From positions 1-64,000 of IMG/VR virus record IMGVR_UViG_3300014613_000017: a stretch of DNA of 64,000 nucleotides. One strand, given 5' to 3'. The number at the start of each line of letters is the position of its first letter. Position 1 is the first letter of the stretch. The notes below the pieces were generated by a model. The model searched no databases and had not been told where the DNA came from. It saw only the letters and a program-made list of their open reading frames with translations. This DNA is from a virus. The translations under genes and the position numbers were made by a program. This document shows positions 9,836-58,789 of this stretch, piece by piece.

Positions 9836-9945
9836 ATAAAATTTCTCCTTTGCATTATAATTTATTATTTAAAACGCCTAATAAAACTTAACTTTTAACC
9901 CCACTACATCACGTCCACATCCCTTCATAGCAACTAAATTACATT

Positions 9946-10146
9946 TTAAATTTCTTCAATGTTTTCTAGCACTTTAGCAATGTGGTAATTCAATTCATCA
10001 ACAAGTCTTTCGTTGTCAATTTGATTCATTAAGTTTCCCATTTTCTCAATATGATCAACTACGTTTTCTAACTTGTCTTGAATGGCATCTTTGTGACGCT
10101 CGTACATTTCAGTTGCCTTGCTTTGATATGGAATATAGCTCATCAT
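9946..10146 (-). CDS. hypothetical protein
   Basis: Compact minus-strand ORF with RBS. Confidence 0.7.
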   Translation of the reverse strand: MMSYIPYQSKATEMYERHKDAIQDKLENVVDHIEKMGNLMNQIDNERLVDELNYHIAKVLENIEEI

Positions 10147-10374
10147 CTAACCCCCTAAGTTTTGCCTAAATACCGCTAAGATGAAAAACATCGAAAATGT
10201 GCCTGCTGAAATAATAATACTTGCAGCCTTCTTTTGGTCTAATAGCTCTAAAAGATAAGATGACACAAGAAAGTTGCGACATGCTTTTTGATAAGCCAAG
10301 TGAAAATAAATTGCAAACATTGCTGAAACTGTTGCTACAAGACCTAATAGTAGGATGACTATCTCAAGCACCAT
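10147..10374 (-). CDS. two-TM membrane protein
   Basis: Two hydrophobic segments. Confidence 0.65.
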   Translation of the reverse strand: MVLEIVILLLGLVATVSAMFAIYFHLAYQKACRNFLVSSYLLELLDQKKAASIIISAGTFSMFFILAVFRQNLGG

Positions 10375-10945
10375 TAGCCACACCAACCTTCATCAACACT
10401 TGAAGTATTTCATCTGCTGACTGATAAGCTGATTCCTTGTCACCTTGGTTCGACAATGAGTAATCACATTCAAAACTGTCATAATGCTGTTCAGTAGGAT
10501 GAGTAAGATCAGACTGTAGGAATACATCTCCTCGTTCTATTAATCTCTTCATTCTCTCTTCTTCATTTACAACAATGCGAACAAATGTAAATCCTCGATT
10601 TTTCAATGCTTCATATTCATTTGGCATTCTACAGTCTGTAACTACAATATTTTCTGAAGCAAATCTAAGCAGTTTACGCTCTTTCGCTTCATCGTCTATG
10701 TCCTTAAGTAAAGCTTTAATCCAAATCTCAGCATCAATTTCACGAAAATGAGTACCAACTGCCTGAAGTAATGCTCTAGGCTTCTTATCATCGCTTTCAT
10801 AAATATGAGGAAACCATTGTTTTGCTACAGTTTTTACATTGTCAGCAAACGCATATCTAGTAAATCCATAATGACTACTGAGATAATCAGCAATCATATC
10901 TTTACCTCCGCCCGCTGGGGAGATGAGTGCAATTTTAATTCCCAA
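10364..10945 (-). CDS. deoxynucleoside monophosphate kinase
   Basis: P-loop AGGGKD, AFAD..K, R..LQ..GT, DCRMPNE and H.TE motifs. Confidence 0.85.
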   Translation of the reverse strand: MGIKIALISPAGGGKDMIADYLSSHYGFTRYAFADNVKTVAKQWFPHIYESDDKKPRALLQAVGTHFREIDAEIWIKALLKDIDDEAKERKLLRFASENIVVTDCRMPNEYEALKNRGFTFVRIVVNEEERMKRLIERGDVFLQSDLTHPTEQHYDSFECDYSLSNQGDKESAYQSADEILQVLMKVGVANGA

Positions 10946-10979
10946 CTAATTCACCTCTTTCGATTATGATTATAATTTG

Positions 10980-11390
10980 TTATTTAACTAATTTACATTT
11001 ACTGAACCTCTCAGCGAGGTCAGTCCTAACTCTAATTGTATATGTTCGTGCTGTTCTCTTTCTCTCTTGATCTCTCATAGTTGTTTTGAGTCCATTTATA
11101 TGAGCGTCAAATTTAGAATTGTTGTTGATGATAGCTTTAATTCCAAAAAGTGTTTCCAACTCATCTTTAGCAGCCCTACGTTTTCGACTAGCTTTTTGAA
11201 TCTGCTTGGCGATATTAAAACCCTGAGATGCATTAAAGTTTTCAAACTCAGCTAAATGTTGCAAATCATTTATTTCTCCATCACATTTTGAAACAGTCTT
11301 GTTCAATTCATCAATACGCTTTGGTAAATTCTCAATTACATCTGCTAGTCCATTTGTTGCTTTTTGGAATACTTCAACTACATTCTGCAT
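10980..11390 (-). CDS. coiled-coil hypothetical phage protein
   Basis: DLQHLAEF...RKRRAAKD pattern. Confidence 0.75.
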   Translation of the reverse strand: MQNVVEVFQKATNGLADVIENLPKRIDELNKTVSKCDGEINDLQHLAEFENFNASQGFNIAKQIQKASRKRRAAKDELETLFGIKAIINNNSKFDAHINGLKTTMRDQERKRTARTYTIRVRTDLAERFSKCKLVK

Positions 11391-11469
11391 TTTCTTCCCC
11401 CATTTCCATATTATATATTTATTCTACACTTATAGTTTATTAATTACAAGTACAAGTTTAATTATTTTT

Positions 11470-11766
11470 TTATTGTGTCATCCCACTGTGATATTCTAAC
11501 AATTGCAGGGCTTTACGCTGAATTTCAGGCATGTTATATGGCAAATCAAATCCACTACTACCAGTAAAATCTTTAAAGTAATCATAGTAGATACCTACTT
11601 TTGACTCGCTGGGATGATTTTGTTGCATTTCAACCAACTCTTTACACCAATTATCAAACGTTGCGTCTGAGATATAGCTTGAGTCCATTTGGTAATATAG
11701 ACAGCTATGAACAAGTATCTGTCTTCTTCTTTGTTCAATTTTTTCTGTGATTGTTTGCAATCCCAT
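11470..11766 (-). CDS. stand-alone NAD-dependent DNA ligase subdomain Ia-like protein
   Basis: HSCLYYQMDSSYISDATFD matches the LigA Ia H..LY..D...I.D..YD pattern. Confidence 0.7.
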   Translation of the reverse strand: MGLQTITEKIEQRRRQILVHSCLYYQMDSSYISDATFDNWCKELVEMQQNHPSESKVGIYYDYFKDFTGSSGFDLPYNMPEIQRKALQLLEYHSGMTQ

Positions 11767-11783
11767 ATTCCTACTCCTTACAG

Positions 11784-11966
11784 TTAAATTAGCAACATAC
11801 GATAAACTTCAACTACTTCACCAAATCCGTTTTCTTTCAAGTGCTTTCGAAGATGATTTATAAATCCACCAACCATACCCTCAATTTCAACCATTGTGAA
11901 AGTCATATCTACTGTCTCACCATCTTTGTTGTGAAAAGTGTATTTAATCTTAAAATCATCGTTCAT
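11784..11966 (-). CDS. hypothetical protein
   Basis: GGAGG RBS before MNDDFK. Confidence 0.65.
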   Translation of the reverse strand: MNDDFKIKYTFHNKDGETVDMTFTMVEIEGMVGGFINHLRKHLKENGFGEVVEVYRMLLI

Positions 11967-12033
11967 GCCTCCAACTCCTTCCATTGATATCATCGTTCGT
12001 TTCGTGTTATTCTACATTCAATTAATAAAGTAT

Positions 12034-12095: not shown

Positions 12096-12281
12096 ATGGC
12101 TAACGAATACACTGAAGCAGAGAAAATGATTTTCGCATCATACGTTAATTTAGAGGTAGCTGCAATGCAAGCTGATAATGAAATCTGTAAAGCAAATGGC
12201 AGACCACCTAAATATGACAGTAGAGATTTTGGTAAAGCAATTCAATATGCACACAACACAATGCGTGGTAATGGATGGTAA
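12096..12281 (+). CDS. antisense-orientation hypothetical protein, 61 aa
   Basis: AAGGATCGGTGA RBS; own promoter; sits in an intergenic gap. Confidence 0.7.
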   Translation: MANEYTEAEKMIFASYVNLEVAAMQADNEICKANGRPPKYDSRDFGKAIQYAHNTMRGNGW

Positions 12282-12298
12282 TACTTATAATTGTTTAA

Positions 12299-12493: not shown

Positions 12494-12532
12494 GTCTGAC
12501 CTCCTTTGTATTAAAACGTTTCTTTTATACTA

Positions 12533-12679: not shown

Positions 12680-12722
12680 TTATAACATCTCCTTGTGTCG
12701 CTTTTTTAGTAAAAGATTACTT

Positions 12723-12962
12723 TTATACGTTCACTCTTCTTACTGATTGATAGCCTATCGTGAAAAATCTTCTTCCAAGATTAAACCACAGTTCATATCT
12801 AGTTGTAAGGTGAGTTGGCAGCTCGTCATATCCGTTAAAGTGGTTGGGTGATTGTGTTTTTTGGACACCTGCTGAAAATGACCACTCCTTGCGACTGCTA
12901 TGCTTCTCTGTAGACGTATAAAACCCTGACTTATAATTGTCTATCGTGTATTCTTCTTCCAT
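12723..12962 (-). CDS. hypothetical protein
   Basis: RBS; bracketed by palindromes at 12710 and 12982. Confidence 0.7.
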   Translation of the reverse strand: MEEEYTIDNYKSGFYTSTEKHSSRKEWSFSAGVQKTQSPNHFNGYDELPTHLTTRYELWFNLGRRFFTIGYQSVRRVNV

Positions 12963-12987
12963 CAGATCAGCTCCTTTCCATTAAAAT

Positions 12988-13164
12988 CTAGTTTTTACTT
13001 TCTTCGCTCAGTACCTTCTTAATATGACTAACCAATTCAATCTCAATATTAACGTGTCTCACATTACGTCTCTTCAGTGATTCGATTGAATCTGTGAGCT
13101 GCGACTTGATCCGAGTGAGAATAAATTTGTCATCGCTGTCTAATATGTGTCTACCATTGCTCAT
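12988..13164 (-). CDS. hypothetical protein, 58 aa
   Basis: Read by eye (MSNGRHILD...); stop codon falls in the 12982 palindrome spacer. Confidence 0.6.
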   Translation of the reverse strand: MSNGRHILDSDDKFILTRIKSQLTDSIESLKRRNVRHVNIEIELVSHIKKVLSEESKN

Positions 13165-13592: not shown

Positions 13593-13626
13593 TGCGTCAT
13601 CTCCTAATAAAAGACTCGTTTTAACT

Positions 13627-14392: not shown

Positions 14393-14456
14393 TTTTAATT
14401 CCTCCTCTTCTTAATAAAACCTGACTTTTATTTTATTTTAACTTGAGTGAAGAAAA

Positions 14457-15123: not shown

Positions 15124-15453
15124 TTGGCAGAGAAACCACTAGCAAGAAGAATGGACGACATTGAACAAGTTATGCAACTCATTCTTAAATCCCAAGAAAA
15201 TTTAACTGGTACTACTACGCTATTTCAGGATTCGTTGGTTGAATTCCAGTCGTCTCTTAGCGAATTAAAACGCGATTCCTTTAACTATTTAAAAGGAATT
15301 GAATCATTAAATGACTCAGACTCTCTACCACAAGAGTGGAACGAAATTATTAGTTATTCTATTGCAAATGATATTTCAACTGAGTATATCATGCAGATGA
15401 TAAAAATATTTAATGGCGACTTTATAAGAAAAAAAGATTCTCTTAGTAAGTAG
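15124..15453 (+). CDS. antisense-orientation coiled-coil protein with C-terminal Sin (SinI/SinR)-like helical hairpin
   Basis: LPQEWNEIISYSIANDISTEYIMQMI resembles the LD.EW..L...A....IS.E.I..F pattern. Confidence 0.6.
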   Translation: MAEKPLARRMDDIEQVMQLILKSQENLTGTTTLFQDSLVEFQSSLSELKRDSFNYLKGIESLNDSDSLPQEWNEIISYSIANDISTEYIMQMIKIFNGDFIRKKDSLSK

Positions 15454-15663: not shown

Positions 15664-15912
15664 GTTATCTGCTCCTTCGTATTTTGTTTTTTCTCCAATA
15701 AAATGATTGTTTTATTCGATACATATTTACTTGTTTTAATTACAATATTAGAATTTGTTAATCAAGTGCTTTAAAGACTGTTGTATCAACGTTTATTGAG
15801 TGTGACATTACGAAATGCTGAAAAACCTGATATTTGACTAAAAATGCTAGTTTTCATCGTTACCCAATAAAAGATGAATTTTATTTTATTTTATTTGATT
15901 ATAATTTACTAT

Positions 15913-21760: not shown

Positions 21761-22011
21761 ATTGTGCCTCCTTTTTAATTATAATTTATTATTTAAAACA
21801 TCCAATAAAAGAGTTGTTTTATTAGGTAATTATTTCACACTTTATTAAAAGTGACGAAAACACTGAAAAACTAGGCTACGAACGCTGATATAGCAAGGTT
21901 TGTGAGCGTCATATTATGAAACTTGTGTAAATGCTGTATTTTAGCTGATTTACACGTTACCAATAAAAACTGTATTTTATTTGATCTTTAATACACAATA
22001 AAAAGTTTATT

Positions 22012-22404
22012 TTACTTGCTTGTCTGTAGATCAATATCAGGAATAATTGATTCAGGTCTAAATATTACACGATAATGGAACGGGTCTACATTTTCAGAGT
22101 CAGTCTGCTCTACAAAGTAGCTCACATTATCACTGAGTCCGAGGAAGTGTTTCTTATACTCACCTTCACCAACCTTACATGTTACTTCAAGCTGATTTCC
22201 TTCGTCAGTGATAGAGCATAGTCCCTCAATAGATAGAAGATACTTGTCAGTAATACCGTTTAAGAATACCACTCGTCTTTCTACTTCAAAGGAATCTGCC
22301 GACTTAGACAAGTTGGTTGACACTGTATCTGCTTCCGTACATGCCCCCAAAATAAGTGTTGCAAATAGTGCAAGGATAGTTAGTTTCTTCTTCATTTTCA
22401 TCAA
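22012..22404 (-). CDS. phage lipoprotein
   Basis: Signal peptide with LGAC lipobox; RRVVF.NGITD pattern. Confidence 0.8.
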   Translation of the reverse strand: MMKMKKKLTILALFATLILGACTEADTVSTNLSKSADSFEVERRVVFLNGITDKYLLSIEGLCSITDEGNQLEVTCKVGEGEYKKHFLGLSDNVSYFVEQTDSENVDPFHYRVIFRPESIIPDIDLQTSK

Positions 22405-22442: not shown

Positions 22443-24165
22443 CTAAAATACAAATCTAGCAGTATCTTTAATCTGCAAAATTTCCACAGCTTCAATTACA
22501 AACTGTGGAGTTACATTACCCTTCCAGCTATTCAAACCTGTTTTACCAACAACGTTTAAAATTGCTGTTTTATTGTCTAATTTGAGGTCTAAAAGTGCTC
22601 CAATATCGTTAAATTTGATGAATTCTATGTTATTTACGTTGAATTTAATGATATTTTGCTCTTTTCCGATGAGTTCTGCATCGCCTAAATTTACTTCTAG
22701 CTGCTCTACAGCATACATTGGTACTTCTAGTCCTTTTCCCCATACTCCAGAAAACTTTTCCATTTCAATTATAAATGGTTTATTAATATTACTAGCAGGC
22801 AATATTAAATCAACAACATGTGACTCATCAGTGTCTAGTTCATATAATGCTTGATTGATCGCATTATCTAATAGCTTGAAATTATCATAATCAATTCTAA
22901 TTCCAGATGCCCCTTGATGCCCTTCTACAAAATCAAATAAATTTAATCCTTGTAAGAAGTCTTTAGTGTCACTCATTAAAGTGTCATAACCACGCATAGA
23001 GCCAACTAAAAACTTTTCATCCTTTTCATCTTTACGTAGTACTAGTGTAGGCTTACGATACTTAGTGACCAAGAACGAAGCGATATATCCACTCATATTC
23101 ATCTCAAAGTCGCCTTCAATTTCAACAACTATAAATGAATTTTCATGTAGCTTTTCTATTTCAATCTTAGCTGACAACTCTTCAAGCAATTTCTCCTTGA
23201 GCTTACGTTGTTTTTGGTACATGTTGTTACATATTCGAGTAATGCGTCTTGCCCATGTTTCTGATTTATCAGCTTTTCTTAGTCGAGCGTTAAAAGTAAT
23301 TTCTTGATGTCCAATAAACGCTTTGAATAAGTCATCCAATTCCTCAGTAGTAGCCATTCGTAGATAGGCATTAACTTTAGGATTAACTTTAAAACTGAGA
23401 ACATTAGGAGTCACTTCTACTCCCTCATCAACATTCTCTTTGATTAGTTCATTGAAGAATTCATTTTGAATATTGGATAAGCCATTTGAGATTAACCATT
23501 TGGTTTCTTTTGATGATAATTGCATGGCATCTCCGACCATTCCCCAAGCAGATAAATCAGCGTAGTCTTCAGCAAAACTTAATCCTAATGTCTTATCAAT
23601 CTGTTGAATAAACTTGTACACAACTCCTGCACCACTAATCCATTTGTTAGGATAATCATCTAACTGAGGATTAATAGTTAGAGCATGCTCTGAGTAGCTA
23701 TCTGCTTCATGGTGATCCAATATTAAAATGTCGATTCCTTTGTTATTTAAATCTTCATATATCTCATAATCATTCGAACCACCATCAGGTAAAATGAATA
23801 GGTTGGTCTCTACTGGTATTAGTTCAGGATTAACTCCATGTTTCTTATCTGGCAAGTGATTTGACCAAGTTAGTTTAATAGTAGGAAATGTTCTAACTAA
23901 GTAAAGGACTAGCTCCGCTGCCGATGTAAATCCGTCAAAGATCCTTATCAATCTGAATATGAATGTGACTGCCATTCTCAATATGATTTAATAAGGAACT
24001 AACACCTCCTTCAATATTGCTAAGTAGTGTAGGCTCATGCTCAAACTTTTGAGGATTGATATACCACTCAATATCCTCTGATTTAATATCTCTGTTAGCG
24101 AAAATTGTTGATATCGGATCAAACAGATTTACGTTTTCTTTGTTCTTAAGTAAATAAATATTCAT
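22443..24165 (-). CDS. recJ: RecJ/DHH ssDNA exonuclease (YorK-like) split by a +1 frameshift at 23937
   Basis: IDKDL|DGFTS rebuilds DHH motif I; LDHH, GDAMQL and GH..A.G; fused product about 573 aa. Confidence 0.85.
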
Positions 24166-25116: not shown

Positions 25117-25317
25117 ATGAATCCTCCAAAACCAGTATCGGTCAGATTAGATGATATTGAAGCTAAGCTAGATGAATTAATTAAAATACAAAAGTCACCT
25201 TACGTACCTTCGCCAATTCCTGCTGATTGGTTGGCATTTGTTGAATATGCTAGTAAAACTTCACTTGATCCAACATTCTTGTTGACTTTTGCTAAGAGAG
25301 TTAGAAAAGAGGATTAG
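25117..25317 (+). CDS. antisense-orientation paralog of 15124..15453
   Basis: KP...RLDDIE N-terminus and IPADW..FV.YA C-terminus; AGGTGA RBS. Confidence 0.65.
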   Translation: MNPPKPVSVRLDDIEAKLDELIKIQKSPYVPSPIPADWLAFVEYASKTSLDPTFLLTFAKRVRKED

Positions 25318-29878: not shown

Positions 29879-30220
29879 CTATAATTTTAAGTATAATTTT
29901 GAGAAATCTTGCATGTAGTACACTTCACCATTTTGCAATGTGAATAATAATGTCTCTAATTTCATGCTTTCTTCCACTCGAACATCAACTAAAATATTGC
30001 TTTTATCAGAATACAATTCACAAAACTTTTCAATCAAACTTACAGGGTCTTTGTTATCTGATACATCAATAACGCCTAATGAGCGATCTTTTTTAAACAC
30101 AATCAGTTGGTCGCCAAATTCTACAATTTCATAGAAGAATTTAACTTCCTGATTAAACCGTTTAACTAAATGGGCTGTAACAATTCGATTCGCTGCATCA
30201 ACAACTTTTCCTGCATTCAT
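29879..30220 (-). CDS. hypothetical protein
   Basis: AAGGAG RBS before MNAGK. Confidence 0.7.
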   Translation of the reverse strand: MNAGKVVDAANRIVTAHLVKRFNQEVKFFYEIVEFGDQLIVFKKDRSLGVIDVSDNKDPVSLIEKFCELYSDKSNILVDVRVEESMKLETLLFTLQNGEVYYMQDFSKLYLKL

Positions 30221-37700: not shown

Positions 37701-37743
37701 CAGTTATAATTTATTTATTTTCAATTCAAATAAAAATCCTCTT

Positions 37744-38013
37744 TTATCTTGATTGAGGGGTAATTAAATCGTCAGGATTGTGCAAATCCTCAAATCCAAT
37801 TCCTTCTTCAACCATCCGTTTCAACTTCGAATTTTCCTCTTTTAGAACATATATGTCATTTATTAGAGCTAGGAAGAACCTGTCTCCTTGTGGACTTCCC
37901 CAAACTTCACCATTTACTGTAATACCTATGGGACTGCTTCCGTATTTGCTATAAGACTTTTTATATTCAATTACTTTACCGTTGTGATAAGTTTTATAAT
38001 ACAAGTCTTCCAA
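37744..38013 (-). CDS. hypothetical cassette protein (TTG start)
   Basis: GGGAGG RBS directly after palindrome 38030. Confidence 0.65.
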   Translation of the reverse strand: MEDLYYKTYHNGKVIEYKKSYSKYGSSPIGITVNGEVWGSPQGDRFFLALINDIYVLKEENSKLKRMVEEGIGFEDLHNPDDLITPQSR

Positions 38014-38057
38014 GTTATTAACCTCCCAATAAAAACTGCCTTTTATTTCTGATCGAA

Positions 38058-39055: not shown

Positions 39056-39115
39056 TATTTCACCTCTTTTTAGTTCACAGTTTAAGTCAACTGTGCGATA
39101 AAACTCAACTTTTAA

Positions 39116-39403: not shown

Positions 39404-39431
39404 GCCCTAACCTCCATTTAAAAGTTTGATT

Positions 39432-39824
39432 TTACTCTTCTTCATCGTCCTCACAATTTGCATATATGCTTCCACCTTGCTCTTCGATCTGCTCAGGTGT
39501 CATTCCAGCTTCTATATCAATTTCACCTGTTTCTTTCCATTTATCAAAGGTTACTTGGGGGTAGTAGGGATTATATCTGTCAGCAGACCACCCATCAGGA
39601 ACTAAAGCAAATGTTCTTACTATATCTGTTAGACAGTCCTCGCACAAATCAAATGACCAAGATTCCATATCATACCTGCTACCATATCCAAATGAACAAC
39701 CAAATTGTTGAAATAACACCTCACCCCACATTTCTTTGGAGGATTCTTTTTTACATTTATTGCACTTCACATTAACTATTTTAGTTTCATGGATTACTCT
39801 TTCTTTTGTTTCGTATTCTCTCAT
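39432..39824 (-). CDS. zinc-binding hypothetical cassette protein
   Basis: CNKC...FGYGS..D...LCEDC; between palindromes 39419 and 39840. Confidence 0.75.
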   Translation of the reverse strand: MREYETKERVIHETKIVNVKCNKCKKESSKEMWGEVLFQQFGCSFGYGSRYDMESWSFDLCEDCLTDIVRTFALVPDGWSADRYNPYYPQVTFDKWKETGEIDIEAGMTPEQIEEQGGSIYANCEDDEEE

Positions 39825-39864
39825 GGATTCCCCTCCTATTAAAACGAGTGTTTTAAGTTATAAT

Positions 39865-40463: not shown

Positions 40464-40500
40464 TCCACATTCCTTTCTGTTTGTTGTTAAAAGAATAGTT

Positions 40501-40818
40501 TTAATTGCTATGTTTTAATAAAAATTCATCAACAGTCATGTACCATATATTCTCATCGTTTCCATCTGCAATGTCCTTATTGATCATTCTTAAGATTTCA
40601 CGTACATTTACATTTGATTTATTATTAACCTCTAAATCTCCCCAGTTAACTTTTGTTAGGTCTATTACATGATATGATCCTTCATCCTCAACAATATATG
40701 CTTCTTCGTCAACTTCAATTGTGAAATGGTTTTCTTGGCTATCCTTGTCTCCCCAAGCCCAAAACGAATCGCCTGATTTAAATAGGCTTCTTCCTGCTGA
40801 ACACGTAAACATTTTCAC
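40501..40818 (-). CDS. hypothetical protein (GTG start)
   Basis: GGAGG RBS. Confidence 0.65.
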   Translation of the reverse strand: MKMFTCSAGRSLFKSGDSFWAWGDKDSQENHFTIEVDEEAYIVEDEGSYHVIDLTKVNWGDLEVNNKSNVNVREILRMINKDIADGNDENIWYMTVDEFLLKHSN

Positions 40819-42149: not shown

Positions 42150-42422
42150 TTATGATCTACTTCGAAACTCCATTGATTCCTTCATATCTTTATCAGATAG
42201 AGCTTTTAAAGCTTCTCCGTTTTGCTCAACACACTTTTCAAAACTTCTTTTAATTTTAAGTTTTATTCCACACTTGGGACAATAATTCACATCTAGCCTG
42301 TAAATTTCATTGCGAAAATACTCAATATAAAGATAATGACCACCTTTGTCTTCATCGTAACAAATCCCGTCACTTCCTCTAAGGGCTTCTTCTGTATTGT
42401 CCTTATTGCAGTAATCGCACAT
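42150..42422 (-). CDS. zinc-binding hypothetical protein
   Basis: CDYC...YCPKCG. Confidence 0.7.
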   Translation of the reverse strand: MCDYCNKDNTEEALRGSDGICYDEDKGGHYLYIEYFRNEIYRLDVNYCPKCGIKLKIKRSFEKCVEQNGEALKALSDKDMKESMEFRSRS

Positions 42423-42469
42423 TTCACCCTCTCCTTCCCTTGTAAAAACGTTATTTTATTTGGTATTAA

Positions 42470-43733: not shown

Positions 43734-43759
43734 AGTTTACCTCCATTAAAATAGAAGTT

Positions 43760-43966
43760 TTAATTAAACTCTTTTTTGTGTTTCTCAATAACTTTACGCA
43801 TCATTGTTTTACCACTTCTAGTTCCAATGAATACAGTCTTTGCTAATAGCCCTTCTGCATATAGTTTTAGATATGCCTTTTGCCATTCAAGCAACTCAAA
43901 ACCAAGATATTTTTCAGCGAAATAGGCAGGATCATTTTTACATTTTTGAAATTCTTGATTGTTCAC
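43760..43966 (-). CDS. mini-protein resembling a terminase large subunit N-terminus
   Basis: KCKNDPAYFAEKY...L..WQ...RSGKT. Confidence 0.65.
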   Translation of the reverse strand: MNNQEFQKCKNDPAYFAEKYLGFELLEWQKAYLKLYAEGLLAKTVFIGTRSGKTMMRKVIEKHKKEFN

Positions 43967-44628: not shown

Positions 44629-45237
44629 TTTTACACTTCCTTTAGTTTAATAAATACAATATTTTAATTGTTTGTTTTGTTAGTTTTGTTAATCTTTTTT
44701 AAAAGTGACAGCTCCCAAGAGGTACAGTGCACAATTTTCCCATCTAAAATCCACCAAGAAGGCTTTTCCTTTAGTCTCTCAATAATAGACTCCAAGGTTT
44801 TATTGCTTACAAATCCACCTTTATGCACCTAAATCACCTCATTCTCCAATAATACTGATCGTATTTCCGCATATAAATCCTCAAGCAGCATTACTTGAAT
44901 ATCCAGCTTCCCACCATTCTCTAACTTATAATCCATTATCTCAATAAGTTTGAACATGCGATCATTTAGATTCTGTAGTCTTGTTATTTTGTCCACTCTT
45001 AGTCATCCCTTTCTTATTCCTTAATTCTTACTTCAACCGTGTCAAAATCTACCTCATATCTGTCTCCGCTAAATCCAGATATTCCTACAATAGAATCAAC
45101 ATATGAGGTGTCTCCAAGCTTCTTAAATAAGTATTCCTGAACTGCTTGTGTAAATTCTTTTTTAGTCAACTCAACTTTCATCGTTTTTCTCCTTCCCCCC
45201 TAAAATAACTCTTTTAATGAATAATGTTTTCATACTG

Positions 45238-45661: not shown

Positions 45662-45711
45662 GTTTCTTCACTCCTTGAAATGTTTTTATGCTTCCAATTA
45701 AAACCAATCTT

Positions 45712-45930
45712 TTATTTGTTAATGTCCACACAAACCATTTTGCTACTAAATGAACTTATTACATTAAATCCACTGTTTTTTAGATATTCTGAGATACAAT
45801 ACCTAACTACATCATCAGGAATAGAAATCACATAGCAATCTTTTTCCCAATTTTTAATGTCATTATAAACTTTTTCTAGCAATGTATTTATTTCATTTAG
45901 TGTTTCCTCGAAATAATTACTCGCCTTCAT
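45712..45930 (-). CDS. hypothetical protein
   Basis: Stop codon inside palindrome 45699. Confidence 0.55.
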   Translation of the reverse strand: MKASNYFEETLNEINTLLEKVYNDIKNWEKDCYVISIPDDVVRYCISEYLKNSGFNVISSFSSKMVCVDINK

Positions 45931-46456: not shown

Positions 46457-46489
46457 ACTAGCAACCCCTCTCCTATTAAAATTTTCGTT

Positions 46490-46621
46490 TTATTCGATAA
46501 CGTCATTTTCTTCGTCTTTTTCGTCATCTAGCCAAACTATCCATCCTTGCCCTCTAATCCCTTGTGTATCAAGGGTTTCAGGCGACTCTATAACACTTCC
46601 GTTCTTAAACACGATTTTCAC
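46490..46621 (-). CDS. cassette mini-protein, 43 aa (MKIVFKNGSVIES...IRG)
   Basis: Read by eye; GGAGG RBS; stop codon is the palindrome arm. Confidence 0.6.
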   Translation of the reverse strand: MKIVFKNGSVIESPETLDTQGIRGQGWIVWLDDEKDEENDVIE

Positions 46622-46656
46622 CTTTTCAACCTCCGATAAAATGCACATTTTAGTCT

Positions 46657-47970: not shown

Positions 47971-48084
47971 TTGGAAGATGCATTCAAAGTTTTGTCCATT
48001 GCTGTAGTTGCTTCTGTAGTTGTGGTTTTTACTATTTATATGACTGTTAATATTTTTTGTTATCACTTAGGTATGTGCTATTAA
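47971..48084 (+). CDS. single-TM peptide, 37 aa (MEDAFKVLSIAVVASVVVVFTIYMTVNIFCYHLGMCY)
   Basis: Read by eye; GGCGGTGA RBS; TTG start. Confidence 0.6.
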   Translation: MEDAFKVLSIAVVASVVVVFTIYMTVNIFCYHLGMCY

Positions 48085-48094
48085 AAGATGCTTT

Positions 48095-48466
48095 TTAATT
48101 GATGTTGCTTAACGCTTGTCGTGCAATTTTTCCTGCATCAATGCTAACTGTTGTATTCTCACCATCCACTAACAGATTGTTTTCTTCATCTGCATAAAAC
48201 TTCAACGCTTCACGTAGACGGTCAATTTCAGCATCTTTTCTTTCGAGGTTATCTTGATGTGCATTTGCTACTATTACACGTGTTTCTCGCAAAGTGTCAA
48301 CGTTTTTTTGTAACCCTTTTATGTTGCTTTGGAGATAATCAATGCCTATTTCCAACTCTTCCACACGTTCAGCTTGTTCGATAAGCCACCTAATATCTAG
48401 GTGAAGGTATTTCATTGTGCCAAAGCCTTGAGTTTTAATTTGTTCTAGACGTTCCTTATCTGTCAT
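48095..48466 (-). CDS. coiled-coil hypothetical protein
   Basis: WLIEQAERVEELE...ALKFYAD. Confidence 0.75.
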   Translation of the reverse strand: MTDKERLEQIKTQGFGTMKYLHLDIRWLIEQAERVEELEIGIDYLQSNIKGLQKNVDTLRETRVIVANAHQDNLERKDAEIDRLREALKFYADEENNLLVDGENTTVSIDAGKIARQALSNIN

Positions 48467-50668: not shown

Positions 50669-51667
50669 TTACTTAATCAAATCATATCCATATAAATTTT
50701 TAAATAACTCTGTCTTAAGTAGCAGCTTAATTACATTTGTATTTCTGTTTTCATATTTATCAACCTTCGTCATAGCTGTGTCAAACTGATCTCCAATGAT
50801 TTTTAAATGCTCTGGCTTAAATTCTCCATCTCTGTTATAGAGTTCATTAGCCATGTGCATCATACCTGATACTTGAATGTCTTTTGATTTCAAAAATTTA
50901 AGATCAAATACTTCTTTATAAATTACGAACTTTCGATTGATATAAAATAAGTCTAATTTTCCTTCTTGTTTTCCTCTTGTTGTTTTCTTGAATATAAATT
51001 CTGAATCTAATAGTTTGCTGGTACTTTGTCTGTCACTTACTGTATTTCCATTTTTATTAACATATTCAGTTTCTTTATCTGTTTTATGAAGTAAATCAAA
51101 TAGTGTTTCTGAAATCTCGATTGTGCGGAATGATCCATCTTTTTGATATAGCGTAGCTAAAAATTTTCCATCTTCCTCTTTTAAGTCCTGTGTGCGTAAG
51201 TTAAGGATTTCTGAAAACCCTTCTCCACTAATTCCCTCAAACAAAGCTAATAACACTGCTCTATCACCATAATTGATTAAATCCTCTAGTCTGTGTAAAA
51301 GCTGCTTTCTTGTAAATGCTGACTGCTTATATTTAGCTACAAACTGTTTAGACCACTCTAATTTATTAACGTTTGATAATGGATTCAGGTTGCTTTCTAC
51401 ATGCCCATTCTCATAAGCCCAATCAATATATTGTTCAAACTTAACTGCGTGATTATAAGCTGTATTAGCTGATGATACAGATAGTGATTTCATTACTTCT
51501 CCTAATTCATCAATCGACATATCGAACATATCTTTTCCAAATAGTTCTTCAGTTTTCTTAGCTGTTATAAAAGGATATGCATATAATTTACGTGTCTCAT
51601 TATGTTGGATTGTATTTAGATAATCAATTTTAATATCTCCATTATAAAAGTTTTCTTTATTTAACAT
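50669..51667 (-). CDS. mrpR: MrpR/YopR/SroF-like master repressor (inactive tyrosine-recombinase fold)
   Basis: NY..RAVL.ALFEG.SG...SE.L.L pattern; catalytic Arg absent; position after the YopQ-like gene. Confidence 0.8.
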   Translation of the reverse strand: MLNKENFYNGDIKIDYLNTIQHNETRKLYAYPFITAKKTEELFGKDMFDMSIDELGEVMKSLSVSSANTAYNHAVKFEQYIDWAYENGHVESNLNPLSNVNKLEWSKQFVAKYKQSAFTRKQLLHRLEDLINYGDRAVLLALFEGISGEGFSEILNLRTQDLKEEDGKFLATLYQKDGSFRTIEISETLFDLLHKTDKETEYVNKNGNTVSDRQSTSKLLDSEFIFKKTTRGKQEGKLDLFYINRKFVIYKEVFDLKFLKSKDIQVSGMMHMANELYNRDGEFKPEHLKIIGDQFDTAMTKVDKYENRNTNVIKLLLKTELFKNLYGYDLIK

Positions 51668-51745
51668 TTTCTTTTCTTCTCCCCTATTATCTAATTTATA
51701 ATTTTTATTATATTTAATGTTATGTTTTAGGCTTCCCTTTTATTC

Positions 51746-53071
51746 TTAAATTAAACCTCTAAAGTATTTACTTATTCTTGATTCATCAATTTGATTATTA
51801 ATTTTACCATCTAATCTAATTATGCCTAGCTCTTTCCATAAAGGATTATCTATTTTAAAGTCTACTTTATCAAGGATTGATTTTAATTTTTCAAATTCTA
51901 AATTTTGTTTTTTCATTTCTGCTGCTAATCCAATATATCCTGCAAACAATTTGTTATAAGCCATAATTGATTCATTCTGATTTCTTGTTGATAAAAATTC
52001 GTCTGGATATAATCCAATCAGATACTCAAAGAATGTTGTTAGATACTGTCCAGTTTGTCTTGCTTCAAGTAATGACTTCATTGGAAACTCTCTGTCAATT
52101 GAATCTGCTAAAACTCTGTAGCTCACTAATTCTCCTGCTGTTATATTCATTCTTGAGCCTGTAGTTGTAACTCGATCACGCAACTCTGATTCTGATTTCA
52201 AAATTTGAACTACTGTATCTGCCAACCTGTTTTTTTCTAGCTCTTGAATACGTGCTGTAGGAATTGGTGTAGCCTTAGCTAACTGTGCTTGATACTGTTG
52301 AGCCTGTGCTGTAGTGTAGTTTGATATCATTACAACAAATCGGAAATCTAAGTCTGGATTTTCTGCATATGCTTGTTGAGATGCTAAACATCTATGGTAT
52401 CCATCAAGAATATCTAATCGTGTTCCTTCATTGATTGTAAGCACATTTTTCTTTCCATTGTATGATAGCTCTTCTCCATTGTCGCTAGTCTGTGTAGCAG
52501 CATTGAAGGCTAATGTCGTGTGTATTAACTGATCCTTTTTAAGCAACTCTTTAATTTCTTTTACGTTTTTCTTATAAATTGTTGGTTTAAATAACATTTT
52601 ATCCTTGCGAACAACTCTTGTTGCTTGTCGTTGAATCTCATAGTTATAATTTAGCTTTTTGGATTTCATTAACTGAGCAATCGTTTTGATGTCCAGTGAA
52701 GCAACATATAAGTTGTTTCCAATGTGGATCACGTTTTCAATTTCTAGTGGGAAAACAATATCATCTTCACCATGTACAAACATGTAATCGAATTGTCTTG
52801 CTTCTTTCATTTCAGCTTCAGTAAACCAATTATTAGGTGCAAATTCTTTTAATCCTGTTTTGACATAAAACTGTTCACTGAAGAGTGCTAACTCTCTTAT
52901 ATCTGCATCTTCTAATACTTCAGGCTGTGAAAAGTAATCCTCCACTCTTCCTTCTGTAATTCTATACTTTGATAACTCTTCCTTAATTTCTGATACTGCT
53001 TTTTTATTTGTAGAGATATATTGAATATTATCTTCAATTTTCTCTAAAAGTTCAGCTCGATTTTTGCTCAT
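51746..53071 (-). CDS. YopQ/SroE-like DndB (DGQHR)-family protein
   Basis: ILDGYHR motif; synteny. Confidence 0.8.
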   Translation of the reverse strand: MSKNRAELLEKIEDNIQYISTNKKAVSEIKEELSKYRITEGRVEDYFSQPEVLEDADIRELALFSEQFYVKTGLKEFAPNNWFTEAEMKEARQFDYMFVHGEDDIVFPLEIENVIHIGNNLYVASLDIKTIAQLMKSKKLNYNYEIQRQATRVVRKDKMLFKPTIYKKNVKEIKELLKKDQLIHTTLAFNAATQTSDNGEELSYNGKKNVLTINEGTRLDILDGYHRCLASQQAYAENPDLDFRFVVMISNYTTAQAQQYQAQLAKATPIPTARIQELEKNRLADTVVQILKSESELRDRVTTTGSRMNITAGELVSYRVLADSIDREFPMKSLLEARQTGQYLTTFFEYLIGLYPDEFLSTRNQNESIMAYNKLFAGYIGLAAEMKKQNLEFEKLKSILDKVDFKIDNPLWKELGIIRLDGKINNQIDESRISKYFRGLI

Positions 53072-53213
53072 CTGTTATGCTCCTTTTCCATTTTTTGTTT
53101 AATTTGATTATATAATAGCATTTTCTGTTTGTAAAAATCTAGTAGTAAAGTTTGTTGTCTTTACACTTACTTTATCATATTATGTCGTTTTATGTCGATA
53201 ACTTTATTTAATT

Positions 53214-54221
53214 TCATTCTTTATTATCTTGTAATTTTAGATTTAAAACGAACAACATCTCTTTAGACATACCCTTTAAAGCATCCAGTAAACATTCATG
53301 TGATACTTCTTTGTATAAATTATGATTTAAATTTCCTTCTAATGAATAATAACCTGTCATTTTCACTTCTTCTTCTTGTAGATATAGCTGCGTTGTAGCA
53401 AGATGCTTATGCTTACCTTTCTTCTGTGCATCTGTTATTGATCCTGTCAGTCTGTATGTGTTGGTTACTGCTGTCTTCTTAAATGAATGGAATGTGTAAT
53501 TTCTGTCCTCATGGTGTAGCTGTTTCTTAAGTCTCAACATCATGTCAGTCAGATTCTTTTTAGTTAATGTAAATACATTGCTTTGTCCTTCTACTTTAAG
53601 CTGCAATAATTCATTGTAGAAATCTCTACTGATTACCTCTAAATACTTTACATCTCCTTTACCAAACCCTGATACATAAACTTTTTCACCATCTGGTTTA
53701 AATTGCTTCCACTCTAATTCACGTAATTCTGATTCACGTAAACCTGTTTCAATGGCTGTTTTGATTATAAGTTGTTTTTCTAAATGCTTATTCTTTTCAA
53801 ATCTTATAGCTTCAAGATATTGTTCTACAACTTCCATTGGCATTGCTTCATAGCTGTTTGCATTGTTCTTTAGTGTGTCGATTAGTTCAAAGAAAGTTAA
53901 GTCTGATTTGATTGCCTTAGTAGCATTTAGATACTTATACATTGATTTAACACTACTTGCGTAACGATTGATGGTACTGTTAGATTGCTTGTCATAAAAG
54001 CTATTCAAGAAAGTCTTAAATGAATCATAGTCCAGCAACTCTAATTCTTCTGCTGTTATAGTGTTAATTGATTTATTATATACATCTGATAAGAAACGAG
54101 TAATGTCTCCTCTATATCCTTTAGTTGTATCTGCTGATCGCTTACCTTTTTCATAAAGAAAATCCTCAATTGCTTTTCCTGCTCTTGTTGTAAAGTCTGT
54201 TACTACTGCTAAATTCGTCAT
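53214..54221 (-). CDS. tyrosine recombinase (YopP-like)
   Basis: SAM-like N-terminal domain, TGLRESE, GKG, HSFKK, KH...TT..Y. Confidence 0.88.
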   Translation of the reverse strand: MTNLAVVTDFTTRAGKAIEDFLYEKGKRSADTTKGYRGDITRFLSDVYNKSINTITAEELELLDYDSFKTFLNSFYDKQSNSTINRYASSVKSMYKYLNATKAIKSDLTFFELIDTLKNNANSYEAMPMEVVEQYLEAIRFEKNKHLEKQLIIKTAIETGLRESELRELEWKQFKPDGEKVYVSGFGKGDVKYLEVISRDFYNELLQLKVEGQSNVFTLTKKNLTDMMLRLKKQLHHEDRNYTFHSFKKTAVTNTYRLTGSITDAQKKGKHKHLATTQLYLQEEEVKMTGYYSLEGNLNHNLYKEVSHECLLDALKGMSKEMLFVLNLKLQDNKE

Positions 54222-54808: not shown

Positions 54809-55035
54809 TGTGACATCTCCTTTGAAATGTTATTTGATACTATTCCTTTTTGCTTCTTTTCTAATCTCATTCATTTTAAAGTGCATACAATCCTTATGTC
54901 CTCTGAATGTCTTGCCATACAAAGAAATGATTATAGGCTCTCTACATTTATAAATACATATGTCGCAACCATCATGTCTAAGTCCCCAATCAAATTTATC
55001 CATTTGATCCTCTCCTTCCTTTTAAAATACGCTTT

Positions 55036-55254
55036 TTATTGTGTCTTGTTTACCATTGTAGAAACAAGATTTCCAAACAAATTTTGAGTGCTTTGGAATT
55101 GATTATTGATTCTGTCTTCATGTGCTTGAAGTTTTTCTTTCAATGCTCTGTTTTCTCTTTCTAGCTTACGTTTCTTAGAAATTGTATCTGCGATAACCAA
55201 TGCCATTTCATAGACAGTATCTTCATCAATTATTAATTCATCATAATTTCTCAT
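55036..55254 (-). CDS. coiled-coil hypothetical cassette protein
   Basis: Between palindromes 55023 and 55287. Confidence 0.7.
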   Translation of the reverse strand: MRNYDELIIDEDTVYEMALVIADTISKKRKLERENRALKEKLQAHEDRINNQFQSTQNLFGNLVSTMVNKTQ

Positions 55255-55505
55255 TTTTCAATCTCTCCATTTCATATTTTATTTACTAAAATCCTGATTT
55301 TAATTGAATAAATCCCAAACATATTTTTCCCCTTCTGTTTTGCAATCTTTGTTTCTTCTTTTGTTTCTTACTCTAACATTCCGATTCCTCTGCCACATAA
55401 AAAACAATATATTTATAACAACTACTACAACTGATCCTATAAGAAGTCCAATAACTATTCCAATTACCCATCCCAATTTAATTAGCTCCTCTCTTATAAC
55501 TTACC

Positions 55506-55703: not shown

Positions 55704-56051
55704 TTTTCATATCTCCTTTTTGTTTTATAATATATTATATGTTTAACTATTTAGATTATACCACTTGTTCAATTAAAAAGTAAAGAATTATTATAATTTA
55801 TTATTTAATAATGCTTAAATAGTTACTTCTAAAGAATCAGCTCAATTTTAGTTATCCTCAAAGGACTCAATCTTCCACTCTCTACCTCGTAATTCAGGGC
55901 TTTCTAAATTAAGCTTTAATACTGTTAAAATGTAATTAACGTCTCCTTTTGTACTTGTTTTCCATTCTAACTCGTCTTTTGTTTTTCTTGATAATAAATA
56001 CTCTTTCATTTTCTTTTCTCTCCTCTGTATTTTTTATATTTAATAAAGGGA

Positions 56052-56311: not shown

Positions 56312-56659
56312 CTATTTCATTTCTTTCTTAATCTCCATAACAATTTGTTTGACTGTTGATTCAACTTGATTCTTAACAAACTCATTCATACGCAATTCAA
56401 CTTTTTCTTTGAGTTTTTGCTCAAATTTGATGTCAATTAAATGTGAGCCTGTTTTATTAAATTCTCTTCCTAGTAGAAAGTCTGTGCTTACATTGAAGAA
56501 ATCTGCAATCCTGACTAGCATCTCTAGATTGGGTTCTCTGACACCATTTTCATAGCCAGAGATAGTGGATTCAGCAACCTTAAAATAAGTTGCCAGCTCT
56601 TTTTGTGTTAGTTTATTTCTTTTCCTCAAGTGAATCAAGGTCTCTGCTAGTTTTGTCAT
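56312..56659 (-). CDS. Xre-family HTH regulator
   Basis: LTQKELA...ESTISGYENG.REP...IADFF.VSTDFLLGR. Confidence 0.9.
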   Translation of the reverse strand: MTKLAETLIHLRKRNKLTQKELATYFKVAESTISGYENGVREPNLEMLVRIADFFNVSTDFLLGREFNKTGSHLIDIKFEQKLKEKVELRMNEFVKNQVESTVKQIVMEIKKEMK

Positions 56660-56695: not shown

Positions 56696-57061
56696 CTATT
56701 TAACGGTGGTATTTTTATAAGCTTCTCTTATAATCGCTTCTGAAATCCTTTCTCTGTGATCCGAAATGAAACTTTCAATAACCTGCTCTGTAACCTTTTT
56801 AATGTTTAATTCAACTTGTTTTTCGTTCATAATTTTAAAAATATCTTTATTATCTATTGTCTTACTTCTTCCTACAAGATCATCAAGTGACACTTCAAAC
56901 AAATCAGCTAACTGAACTAATCTTGTTAACGTTGGCTCTGCATTGGACAATTCATACTTTGTGTATGCAGCTCTTGTTAAGCTTAGATAGTCAGCAACCT
57001 GTTCTTGACTAAGCTCTTTATGCTTTCTAAGTTGTTTTAAGTTTGTTGCAAAATTAATCAT
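56696..57061 (-). CDS. Xre-family HTH regulator
   Basis: LSQEQVA...RAAYTKYE...EP...LADLF.VSLDDLVGR. Confidence 0.9.
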   Translation of the reverse strand: MINFATNLKQLRKHKELSQEQVADYLSLTRAAYTKYELSNAEPTLTRLVQLADLFEVSLDDLVGRSKTIDNKDIFKIMNEKQVELNIKKVTEQVIESFISDHRERISEAIIREAYKNTTVK

Positions 57062-57312
57062 GTCTGATACTCCTTTTGAAACATTTGGTTACAATTATTG
57101 TATCAGTTAGTGATGTAAATTCAAATTGATTTCATTGAACTATTCATTAAGTCGGTTCATCTGTTCATCAAATCTGCCTTGTTTGTAGCCATCATAATAA
57201 GCCTGTTCTTTTTCTTTTCTTAATTGTTTTATCATCTTCATATACTCTTTTAATTGTCCGCAAGCAAAATCATAATCACTTTTTAATAACTGATATTTGG
57301 TTGACTTCACTT

Positions 57313-57579
57313 TTAATCACCTTTTCCTTCACTACGTATTTTGTCTCCATTTTCAGTGTTTGTTATTAGCTTTCTAAGCTCTTCCATAAAATAAGAAACA
57401 AAAACATAATCCTCATTTTGATAAACGCACGATATGAGAAAGGCAAATTTCATGTCTCTTCCTCCATTCCAATGTTCAGCAACTTCGTTTGCTTTTTGCA
57501 CTGCTTTCCTCTTCTTCCAGTCCTGTTCATAATTATAAATTGTTGTTATTGCTTTCAATCCTTCTTTTAATGCTGACAT
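57313..57579 (-). CDS. hypothetical protein
   Basis: GAGG RBS. Confidence 0.65.
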   Translation of the reverse strand: MSALKEGLKAITTIYNYEQDWKKRKAVQKANEVAEHWNGGRDMKFAFLISCVYQNEDYVFVSYFMEELRKLITNTENGDKIRSEGKGD

Positions 57580-57682
57580 TAAGTTACCTCTCTCTCCTTA
57601 TAAAAACCTTGTTTTAGTTGATGTTATTTTTAAATTTAAAATTTCCTGCATATAAGGGTTTTCTTTTGTATATATTATTAAG

Positions 57683-57706
57683 GAATTCCCTTACCGGAGG
57701 GAATTC
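57683..57706. other. perfect 9-bp inverted repeat GAATTCCCT-N6-AGGGAATTC
   Basis: Intergenic; no U tract, so it could be an operator or an RNA hairpin. Confidence 0.5.
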
Positions 57707-58004
57707 AACTGTCGTTTCTATGGAATGGGTTTATAGCCTATTCCATTTTTTGTGCCTTTGTTGTTTGAACGTGATTATAATTTACCTAATGAAACATTTA
57801 TTTTATTTGAGAATCCTTTCTGTCTTTTACAGAACAAACTAAAATTAATTCACTTTCTTTTACATGTTTAATCGTTTGTTATTAAATATTGGTAGATATG
57901 ATGGTTAAAAGTTGCAGATATTTCATATAAACCTTTCATAGCTCTAAATTTATGCCTTACAATATCTCCTTTTTCATAAGCCATGTGTATGTCTCCTTGT
58001 TCTA

Positions 58005-58271
58005 CTAGCTGATCCATTCATTAAGCTCATTCACTTTTTTAGTTGCTACATTTTCACTCTTAGCTGAATCCACCCATGTCTTACTTTCACCTTGCACTAA
58101 GTAGATATTAAATCCTCCGTGTGATAAGTAATCATCCTTGACATAAATGATTTCAATTGGAAGATTAGATTTCTTTATCATGTCTTTGGCTATAAATCTT
58201 GCCTTAATCCTTACAGGTTCAGAAACTGCATTTCTCTGTTGCTTATACGTTAATGTACTCAATCTAACCAC
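58005..58271 (-). CDS. hypothetical protein
   Basis: GAGG RBS. Confidence 0.65.
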   Translation of the reverse strand: MVRLSTLTYKQQRNAVSEPVRIKARFIAKDMIKKSNLPIEIIYVKDDYLSHGGFNIYLVQGESKTWVDSAKSENVATKKVNELNEWIS

Positions 58272-58274
58272 TCC

Positions 58275-58487
58275 TCATTTTTTAAATCTTTCTAGTATCT
58301 CCTGTTGAAGACTGACTACGTATAATTCCGTGCTGTCTGAGTTTTTTCCTAGTTCACCTGATTTACATGTTAACCTCAATTTATACCAATACTCTAAAAG
58401 CTCTTCATTTGTAAATTCGTGAAAAGCTTTATTTCTCCACTCCTCAACTTTAAAACCAATTCTTAATGACATTTTCATCTTCTCCAT
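58275..58487 (-). CDS. hypothetical protein
   Basis: Compact ORF. Confidence 0.6.
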   Translation of the reverse strand: MEKMKMSLRIGFKVEEWRNKAFHEFTNEELLEYWYKLRLTCKSGELGKNSDSTELYVVSLQQEILERFKK

Positions 58488-58528
58488 TCATAATTTATTA
58501 TTTTGTCTTACCTTTTAAAAGATAGATT

Positions 58529-58789
58529 TTACTCGTTGTATTCTTTAAGCGTTTCAATTCCTTCTCTTATCATTTCTTGTGCATAGCTATCTGTTTTAGC
58601 ATCTTCATCTTTATATGTCACAGTAGTTTCATTAGAACTTAAATCAAGTTTGATTTCAGCGATTACTTTTCCTTCCTCATTCTCATCATTTGTGATCCAA
58701 GCATCAATTGACATTACTACATAGCCCTCTTCAAATCCACTTTCATCAATAAACTCATTTTGAATTGCCATCCATTTGTTGTTTTCCAT
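58529..58789 (-). CDS. acidic hypothetical protein
   Basis: GAGGAG RBS. Confidence 0.7.
   Translation of the reverse strand: MENNKWMAIQNEFIDESGFEEGYVVMSIDAWITNDENEEGKVIAEIKLDLSSNETTVTYKDEDAKTDSYAQEMIREGIETLKEYNE

Follow-up and report, generated by a model that had tools for sequence, protein, structure and literature searches.

A strictly spaced palindrome at early-gene boundaries of SPbeta-like phages and its possible role in gene exchange

It has long been asked how phages can exchange single genes with clean joins at gene boundaries, and modular evolution theory speaks of 'linker sequences'. The question is raised in a concrete form by the first 64 kb (the window) of a 127,183-bp phage record from a groundwater metagenome (IMG/VR record IMGVR_UViG_3300014613_000017), in which small early genes are separated by copies of the palindrome TAAAA-N6-TTTTA. 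What are these sites for? A first-pass annotation of the window had taken them for the borders of integron-like gene cassettes. We tentatively favour, at somewhat less than even confidence, a different answer: that a protein recognises the palindrome as a dyad at the 3' ends of early genes, and that the site serves as an order-preserving joint for the exchange of single genes or small blocks between related SPbeta-like phages.

Architecture and placement of the palindrome

The window contains 35 exact copies of TAAAA-N6-TTTTA, 33 of them inside 9882–58531, compared with 0.77 expected from 100 dinucleotide shuffles in which the highest count was 3; the abundance reported in the first-pass annotation (at least 32 copies) is therefore borne out. 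The entire 127-kb record holds 44 exact copies. When identical arms are set 0–5 or 7–15 bases apart, each spacing yields 0–3 copies as against the 44 found with a spacer of six, and swapped or direct arrangements of the arms yield at most six. Since the enrichment is confined to the 6-base spacer, the spacing is specific, and the sites are indeed laid out as dyads in the manner of a protein or recombinase core site, as the annotation had recognised. The palindrome extends weakly beyond its arms to C-N-AATAAAA / TTTTATT-N-G, i.e. about CNAATAAAA / TTTTATTNG, such that each arm has five invariant bases and two or three weakly conserved positions here (in Psychrobacillus phage Perkons it reads CAAATRAAA). 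Copies with one mismatch are at background in the record, with 16 seen and an estimated ~16 expected. The centres are richer in G+C (45%) than intergenic DNA (29%). They all differ from one another, as the annotation stated, but this is uninformative because 44 random hexamers would all differ with a calculated probability of ~0.8.

Genes were called with a simple codon-usage model, which gave a coding fraction of 86%. Although only 14% of the DNA is non-coding, 38 of the 44 copies are intergenic, in agreement with the earlier view that almost all are. The leftward-transcribed early region holds 37 copies, and the sites are dispersed over 1–120 kb in several clusters. Read in the sense of the genes, the order is stop codon, motif, usually 2–7 nucleotides, ribosome-binding site and start codon, the start usually lying 12–22 nucleotides past the motif. 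The motif's own TAA is the stop of the upstream gene in 15 cases, and in about nine others the stop lies 1–12 nucleotides before the motif. The shared stop is seen at 12710–12725 (gene 12723–12962), 21999–22014 (22012–22401), 36707–36722 (36720–36923), 36936–36951 (36949–37191), 39419–39434 (39432–39824), 40488–40503 (40501–40812), 43747–43762 (43760–43966), 45699–45714 (45712–45930), 46477–46492 (46490–46621), 55023–55038 (55036–55254) and 55287–55302 (55300–55476), as well as at copies described further below (37731, 48082 and 58516); all window copies are given without strand. Intergenic copies are also found at 12512–12527, 12982–12997 (overlapping the end of 12988–13164), 13608–13623, 14415–14430, 15699–15714, 21964–21979, 36389–36404, 39099–39114, 45201–45216, 46637–46652 and 57601–57616.

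Ten pairs of successive sites bracket one called gene. Eight of these pairs are in small-gene arrays, for example 12512/12710, 36389/36707 and 39099/39419, and the pair 21999/22557 terminates at a copy within a gene. The genes that had been described as standing alone between two sites are thus delimited as units of ribosome-binding site, open reading frame (ORF) and stop codon. Three window copies lie within genes, namely 2646–2661 (in gene 2196–2711), 22557–22572 (in the RecJ-like gene 22443–23975) and 29990–30005 (in gene 29879–30220), so that the reported lack of copies in the helicase-to-RusA block and in the operon for deoxynucleoside triphosphates holds for intergenic copies and not for intragenic ones. 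A last copy (63447–63462) falls where the leftward gene block gives way to the rightward one, in a long non-coding stretch; about 1 kb there (63290–64295) is without convincing genes.

Gene replacement at the sites in the SPbeta group

A megablast search against phages returned no close relative of the groundwater phage, and protein-seeded scans of viral, genome and metagenome contigs reached a top amino-acid identity of 66–67%, again with no close kin. In DNA polymerase III alpha it is 71% identical to Tsamsa-like phages and 61–62% identical to Geobacillus virus E3 and Perkons. Despite this distance, the gene layout is SPbeta-like by tblastn: homologues of yorF to yorM occur in order, and a trio of yopP/yopQ/yopR(mrpR) homologues (50669–54221) is common to SPbeta and Perkons (ORF64–66). 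Because the groundwater phage is without close kin, the idea of recombination at the sites was tested in the SPbeta group, where the region yorL–nrdE was compared in five phages (SPbeta, phi3T, SPR, Goe11 and Goe13) and the region yopX–yoqZ in six (SPbeta, Goe13, phi3T, Goe11, SPbetaL4 and SPbetaL6).

In yorL–nrdE the centres follow one shared order at varying distances (AAGTCA/GAGTCA, TATCTC, GATCAA, TTTGTC, TATTCC, TTCAAT, GTTTTA and GGATGA), while homology of the flanks is absent right up to the edges of the motif; the GATCAA site, for instance, is found with four left flanks and two right flanks. In yopX–yoqZ a single site may have up to five families of left flank and three of right flank. 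The anti-Gabija genes Gad1 and Gad2 share one slot between the CAGAGA and ACGATA sites (L054:10731–11618 in SPbetaL4 and L055:10473–11675 in SPbetaL6), corresponding to the yoqX–yoqY junction region of SPbeta. In this group, then, centres and their order are conserved while the flanks reassort on both sides. Since a centre tracks neither of its neighbouring genes, the ends of replacements have repeatedly come to lie within or at the arms, on both sides. Sites make up about 2% of the DNA, and 49 of 206 BLAST alignment ends fall at them; by our own count in SPbeta, homology breaks at five to six of six junctions that carry the motif as against seven of 21 that do not. The breakpoints that the annotation expected at sites in SPbeta relatives are therefore found, with gene replacements ending exactly there, but breaks are not confined to the sites. 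The gene shuffling it proposed is not what the relatives display, which is exchange between equivalent sites of different genomes with gene order kept. Copies of the CAGAGA site in phi3T (L052:11052) and Goe11 (L053:11865) retain the left arm and centre and have lost the right arm (TAAAACAGAGA then TGATA or TTTAT), and look as if the break had come where the centre meets the right arm.

The motif is found well beyond the SPbeta group. Counts of the relaxed form TRAAA-N6-TTTYA, with the reversed pattern as control in brackets, are 36 (3) in SPBc2, 42 (10) in E3, 52 (6) in Perkons and 29 (5) in Tsamsa, with a weak enrichment in Lactococcus phage phiL47 of 12 (5). Judged by these pattern counts, the motif is a signature of the SPbeta-like family. 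Its placement in Perkons, E3 and SPbeta matches that in the groundwater phage. In SPbeta the motif typically starts with the upstream stop codon and lies 24–35 nucleotides before the next start, sometimes ahead of a terminator or promoter, and hence is tied to gene ends and not to ribosome-binding sites. The half-sites of Perkons vary independently (TAAAA/TTTTA eight times, TGAAA/TTTCA five times, and mixed pairs five and three times), and positions 2 and 15 of the E3 sites co-vary (11 AT, four GC, one mixed). Centre sharing with distant relatives amounted to one match for about one expected, and this match (L033) has unrelated flanks. A comparison of orthologues between the groundwater phage, Perkons and E3 for conservation of sites found few shared small genes, of which only 42150–42422 was informative: a copy lies upstream of it (42443–42458), and its Perkons homologue has an upstream copy too.

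On the groundwater phage's own DNA, breakpoints could be followed in the few contigs of a sediment metagenome that contains a relative of 85–95% identity (X2). Homology with X2 begins four nucleotides before the site at 38030–38045, and a 197-nucleotide deletion in X2 ends exactly at the edge of the site at 48082–48097, whose TAA is the stop of 48095–48466. Homology with X2 also ends at motif-free junctions (42946, 44012, 44394, 41382 and 47036), and in these few contigs the sites are not visibly over-represented among breakpoints relative to other gene junctions.

In the mechanism that we propose, each site would present two invariant arms and a six-base centre that varies from site to site. 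Two related genomes would meet by co-infection or by infection of a lysogen, and exchange between equivalent sites of both would replace one block of ribosome-binding site, ORF and stop by an unrelated block, leaving the neighbours and the gene order intact. The left arm would provide the TAA stop, the next ribosome-binding site would follow the right arm, and a phage protein that binds the arms as a pair would promote exchange in or beside the centre. Such exchange would be catalysed rather than driven by short homology, and the groundwater phage would use its sites in the same manner. A more specific version, which we consider distinctly doubtful, holds that these are 'addressed' crossover sites, where a phage recombinase would pair equivalent sites and swap strands across a matching six-base centre, so that accessory genes such as Gad1 and Gad2 would be exchanged slot by slot without scrambling of their order. 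If true, SPbeta-like phages would possess a natural version of recombinase-mediated cassette exchange between heterospecific sites.

A number of observations weigh against the sites being joints for exchange. Homology also breaks at junctions without the motif, both in SPbeta (the seven of 21 noted above) and at the five positions listed for the groundwater phage. One left flank is joined to two centres (TATCTC in SPR and GATCAA in Goe11), showing that the identity of a centre is not strictly kept, and orthologous copies decayed by one arm mismatch occur. Conservation of centres among phages that are 92–97% identical is the prediction of neutral descent, and the key evidence comes from the SPbeta group and not from the groundwater phage, which has no close relative. 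The conserved arm, at five to ~7 bases, is short for a tyrosine recombinase, and its deep conservation may point to a direct physiological role. In laboratory hybrids of phi3Ts and SPbeta, long homology accounts for 15 of the 16 junctions (10.1101/2020.05.06.055103). The crossover in one hybrid, Hyb2, can be placed only to a 1.4-kb stretch of mtbP that is identical in the parents and has a site on either side, and is uninformative because it may have occurred anywhere within that identity. The sole non-homologous junction, N1 (Dragos et al.), may fall within ~15–20 nucleotides of the TATTCC site in both parents, as judged by our coordinate conversion.

The motif is strict and easily recognised; SPbeta and phi3T, which both carry it, are amenable to genetics; and it coincides with the slots at which accessory genes such as Gad1 and Gad2 are exchanged. 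Should the sites promote exchange, they would account for the rapid turnover of counter-defence genes in the family and could be used for cassette engineering of Bacillus phages; if they are regulatory, they would represent a large unknown regulon of a model phage.

Candidate proteins and rival explanations

Which protein might act at the sites? We think that the best candidate for promoting exchange is the YomM homologue, encoded outside the window in the tail-gene block (genome 96694–97677; L050:695–1678). It best matches Xer-type recombinases, and its predicted catalytic residues R, HxxR, H and Y are in place when aligned to XerA/XerC-like structures. A YomM-like gene is present in all five phages compared, i.e. 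SPbeta (yomM), Perkons, E3, Tsamsa and phiL47. Because phiL47 has the gene and yet only a weak enrichment of the motif, this distribution does not separate the readings, and it counts to that extent against exchange by YomM at the palindrome. The recombinase to which the first-pass annotation assigned the activity (53214–54221, minus strand) is a homologue of YopP (tblastn to SPbeta yopP) with a tyrosine-recombinase fold (Pfam Phage_integrase, 3.8e-11). It has lysine at the second catalytic arginine (HxxK replaces HxxR) and is a candidate binder of the sites only. Next to it lie a YopQ-like protein with a DndB domain (51746–53071; Pfam DndB) and a homologue of the repressor MrpR/YopR/SroF (50669–51667, minus strand; Pfam MrpR_N_CB 4e-16 and MrpR_C_cat 6e-14). 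A sprA-like serine integrase is encoded at 48–1523.

The MrpR homologue more likely reads a second repeated element, motif B (about TTAATWAATAAATTATAA[T]), than the palindrome. Motif B has ~25–40 strand-specific copies, depending on the strictness of its definition, on the sense strand of the early genes (for example, in gene sense, at 4383, 9862, 16596, 21786, 36090, 42927, 49372 and 54492), and is placed either just upstream of a sigma-A −35/−10 pair or directly before a ribosome-binding site. SPBRE, the MrpR operator of SPbeta, is probably its equivalent. The palindrome itself was considered as an SPBRE/MrpR operator and rejected: SPBRE is asymmetric, and chromatin affinity purification sequencing (ChAP-seq) of MrpR in SPbeta gave only ten peaks, all at SPBRE (PMC10516654), as against 36 palindromes in that phage. 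Motif B fits better. A YonR-type repressor is likewise an unlikely binder, since phi3Ts is reported to lack yonR (10.1101/2020.05.06.055103) and still carries the sites, as does phi3T.

The two elements often adjoin one another. In gene sense, motif B comes after the copies at 9882–9897 and 21806–21821 (both intergenic), in the former case together with the ribosome-binding site of 7526–9835. It also comes, with a sigma-A-like promoter, after the copy at 37731–37746 (its TAA the stop of 37744–38013), and a motif-B-like element comes after the copy at 58516–58531 (its TAA the stop of 58529–58789); the intergenic copy at 15868–15883 adjoins motif B, and the copy at 39840–39855 is preceded by it. 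Among 52 gaps of 25–60 nucleotides between co-directional early genes, 20 contain the palindrome, 11 motif B, 21 neither and none both. Strong promoters of the extended −10 sigma-A type (TGTTATAAT, TGGTATAAT) cluster at 59400–60700 and 55750–55850, at the start of the leftward early region, and are consistent with immediate-early transcription by the host polymerase. Three small genes within the leftward early arrays are on the plus strand (12096–12281, 15124–15453 and 25117–25317), two of which (15124 and 25117) both match one opposite-strand gene of Perkons (ORF88).

A serious contender, even if we hold it to be on the unlikely side, is that the palindrome is a multi-copy operator or roadblock, at which a small dimeric phage protein (e.g. 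of the Cro/CI helix-turn-helix type) would silence or punctuate early transcription at gene ends in the manner of stoperators, with the mosaic junctions a by-product. The junctions would then stem from islands of 16–22 bp of identity, the sole homology between unrelated cassettes, used by relaxed annealing; a homologue of the Sak4-like annealing protein YorG is encoded at 30315–31223 on the minus strand (tblastn to SPbeta 101118–101987, yorG). With the 5-6-5 layout, the centres of the half-sites are separated by 11 bp, as they are in the operator of phage 434, and the arms are conserved across phages whose proteins are only 30–60% identical, suggesting direct selection. Copies often lie just upstream of motif B and a promoter, the expected place for a terminator or insulator. 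The independent variation of Perkons half-sites and the origin of laboratory hybrids by homologous recombination also speak for an operator, and the window encodes two Xre-type helix-turn-helix proteins resembling YonR (56312–56659 and 56696–57061; Pfam and tblastn). An operator has, however, no known binder, the ten MrpR peaks and the reported lack of yonR in phi3Ts arguing against MrpR and YonR in that role. Sites also occur within long co-directional operons with no promoter nearby, and the background level of one-mismatch copies is unusual for operators. A centre that tracks neither flank would require repeated crossovers inside 5-base arms, which is hard by annealing alone.

The remaining explanations are considerably weaker. 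It is very unlikely that the palindrome acts in RNA, as a short AU hairpin or AU-rich element for processing of early mRNA or for tuning translation of the next gene. Its position between stop codon and ribosome-binding site, usually 2–7 nucleotides before the latter in the groundwater phage, and the co-variation in E3 would suit such a role, but the predicted hairpin is barely stable (minimum free energy averaging −1.5 kcal/mol at 37 °C, and in E3, whose host is a thermophile, −0.5 at 60 °C), the stem is conserved in sequence rather than co-varying, with a free loop, eight of 21 Perkons sites have mismatched half-sites, and in SPbeta the motif lies 24–35 nucleotides from the start codon, often before terminators or promoters instead of a ribosome-binding site. 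A stable hairpin kept by compensatory changes was accordingly rejected, the stem being weak or absent, especially in E3 at 60 °C, and the Perkons half-sites independent. We regard as highly improbable the integron-like system of the first-pass annotation, in which a phage tyrosine recombinase would excise single-gene circles and reinsert or shuffle them among the sites of one genome with the centre tolerance of Tn916. Single-gene units do lie between successive sites, genes of the tyrosine-recombinase fold are present, and one left flank is found with two different centres. Gene and centre order are nevertheless kept in the SPbeta group, no attC-like or attI-like features or platform promoter (Pc) were seen, and no duplicated cassettes were noted. 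Every centre differs within one genome, which would hinder a classical recombinase from joining them. No site-to-site circle junctions were found in the metagenome contigs compared, where long-range joints run through motif B repeats or have low depth with 20–22 letters on the shorter side; two such joints in X1 contigs, 37686>54485 (through motif B repeats) and 39764>49627 (depth 5, 22 letters on the shorter side), were treated as assembly artefacts. Finally, there is very little to recommend a promoter or terminator signal of a phage RNA polymerase such as YonO. Exact, all-or-none copies do resemble phage RNA polymerase promoters, and leaders in the groundwater phage are short. But the sites are palindromic, E3 (42 copies) and Tsamsa are without a YonO homologue, and transcription positioned by the motif would begin within the ribosome-binding site or immediately ahead of it; most sites are moreover in the early region, which YonO is reportedly not known to transcribe. 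The absence of YonO from the groundwater record carries no weight, as this is only ~68% complete.

Comparison with known systems

No prior description of the motif was found in the searchable literature, neither in work on Perkons or SPbeta nor by string search, which gave unrelated matches only. Promoter-early stem-loop (PeSL) cassettes of T4-type phages combine a sigma-70 promoter with a terminator hairpin; they recombine through their homology and give rise to mini-circles (Arbiol et al. 2010, PMC2839356; PMC4122927). Like them, the palindrome is a short conserved motif between small non-essential genes in plastic regions, and indels and replacements of close relatives end in it, both in the SPbeta group and in two cases on the groundwater phage's own DNA. 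It differs in being 16 bases long with ten fixed, in its site-specific centre and in having no stable hairpin (−1.5 kcal/mol) and no promoter; no sigma-70-type early promoter joined to a terminator stem-loop was found in the motif.

The core sites of tyrosine recombinases (dif/XerCD, difH/XerH, loxP/Cre) have arms of 11–13 bp around a crossover region of 6–8 bp. The palindrome shares with them inverted arms around a fixed centre, only the 6-bp spacer being enriched, and an Xer-like recombinase with intact catalytic residues is encoded as a candidate enzyme; as with heterospecific lox or FRT sites, differing centres would block recombination within a genome and permit exchange between equivalent sites. 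The arms are, by contrast, conserved over only five to ~7 bases, and to our knowledge dozens of sites per genome are unprecedented for Xer or Cre systems. Integrons have a single attI site, a Pc promoter and the integrase IntI, and their attC sites are folded single strands of variable length with RYYYAAC/GTTRRRY cores. The likeness lies in promoterless single-gene units bounded by repeats that resemble recombination sites. All copies of the palindrome, however, have a fixed length of 16 bp and no GTTRRRY core, and no single intI/attI/Pc platform was found, the recombinase-fold genes (50.7–54.2 kb) lying inside the region and not at the head of an array.

In Cluster A mycobacteriophages, stoperators (read by L5 gp71) span 13 bp, are asymmetric, point along the direction of transcription and bind a monomer (PMC9283540, PMC6550527). 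They likewise are short, occur by the dozen in the narrow gaps between genes of a temperate phage and are read by one phage protein, whereas our motif is a strict palindrome with no known binder; it shows neither the asymmetry nor the single orientation of sites that the immunity repressor binds, the MrpR peaks of SPbeta lying at SPBRE. Cluster O mycobacteriophages carry 17-bp dyad repeats of unknown function, TGTTCGG-N3-CCGAACA (PMC4351075). These resemble the palindrome in having more than 30 copies per genome, invariant inverted arms and a variable centre, and in lying for the most part in intergenic gaps or close to the starts of genes. They differ in sequence, in their 3-bp centre and in the group of phages and hosts, a link to mosaic junctions being reported only in the case of a single gene that has a 17-bp direct repeat on either side. 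MrpR/YopR/SroF, a monomeric repressor, binds SPBRE at about ten promoters of SPbeta; this operator is asymmetric and ~15 bases long (PMC10516654; 10.1101/2025.11.27.690993). SPBRE is a repeated AT-rich element of the same phage family and often adjoins the palindrome, but the latter has 36 copies in SPbeta and is not as such among the ten ChAP-seq peaks. None of these systems corresponds to the sites in full: in behaviour they are closest to PeSL cassettes, in layout to the core sites of tyrosine recombinases, and in dispersal to stoperators and the dyads of Cluster O.

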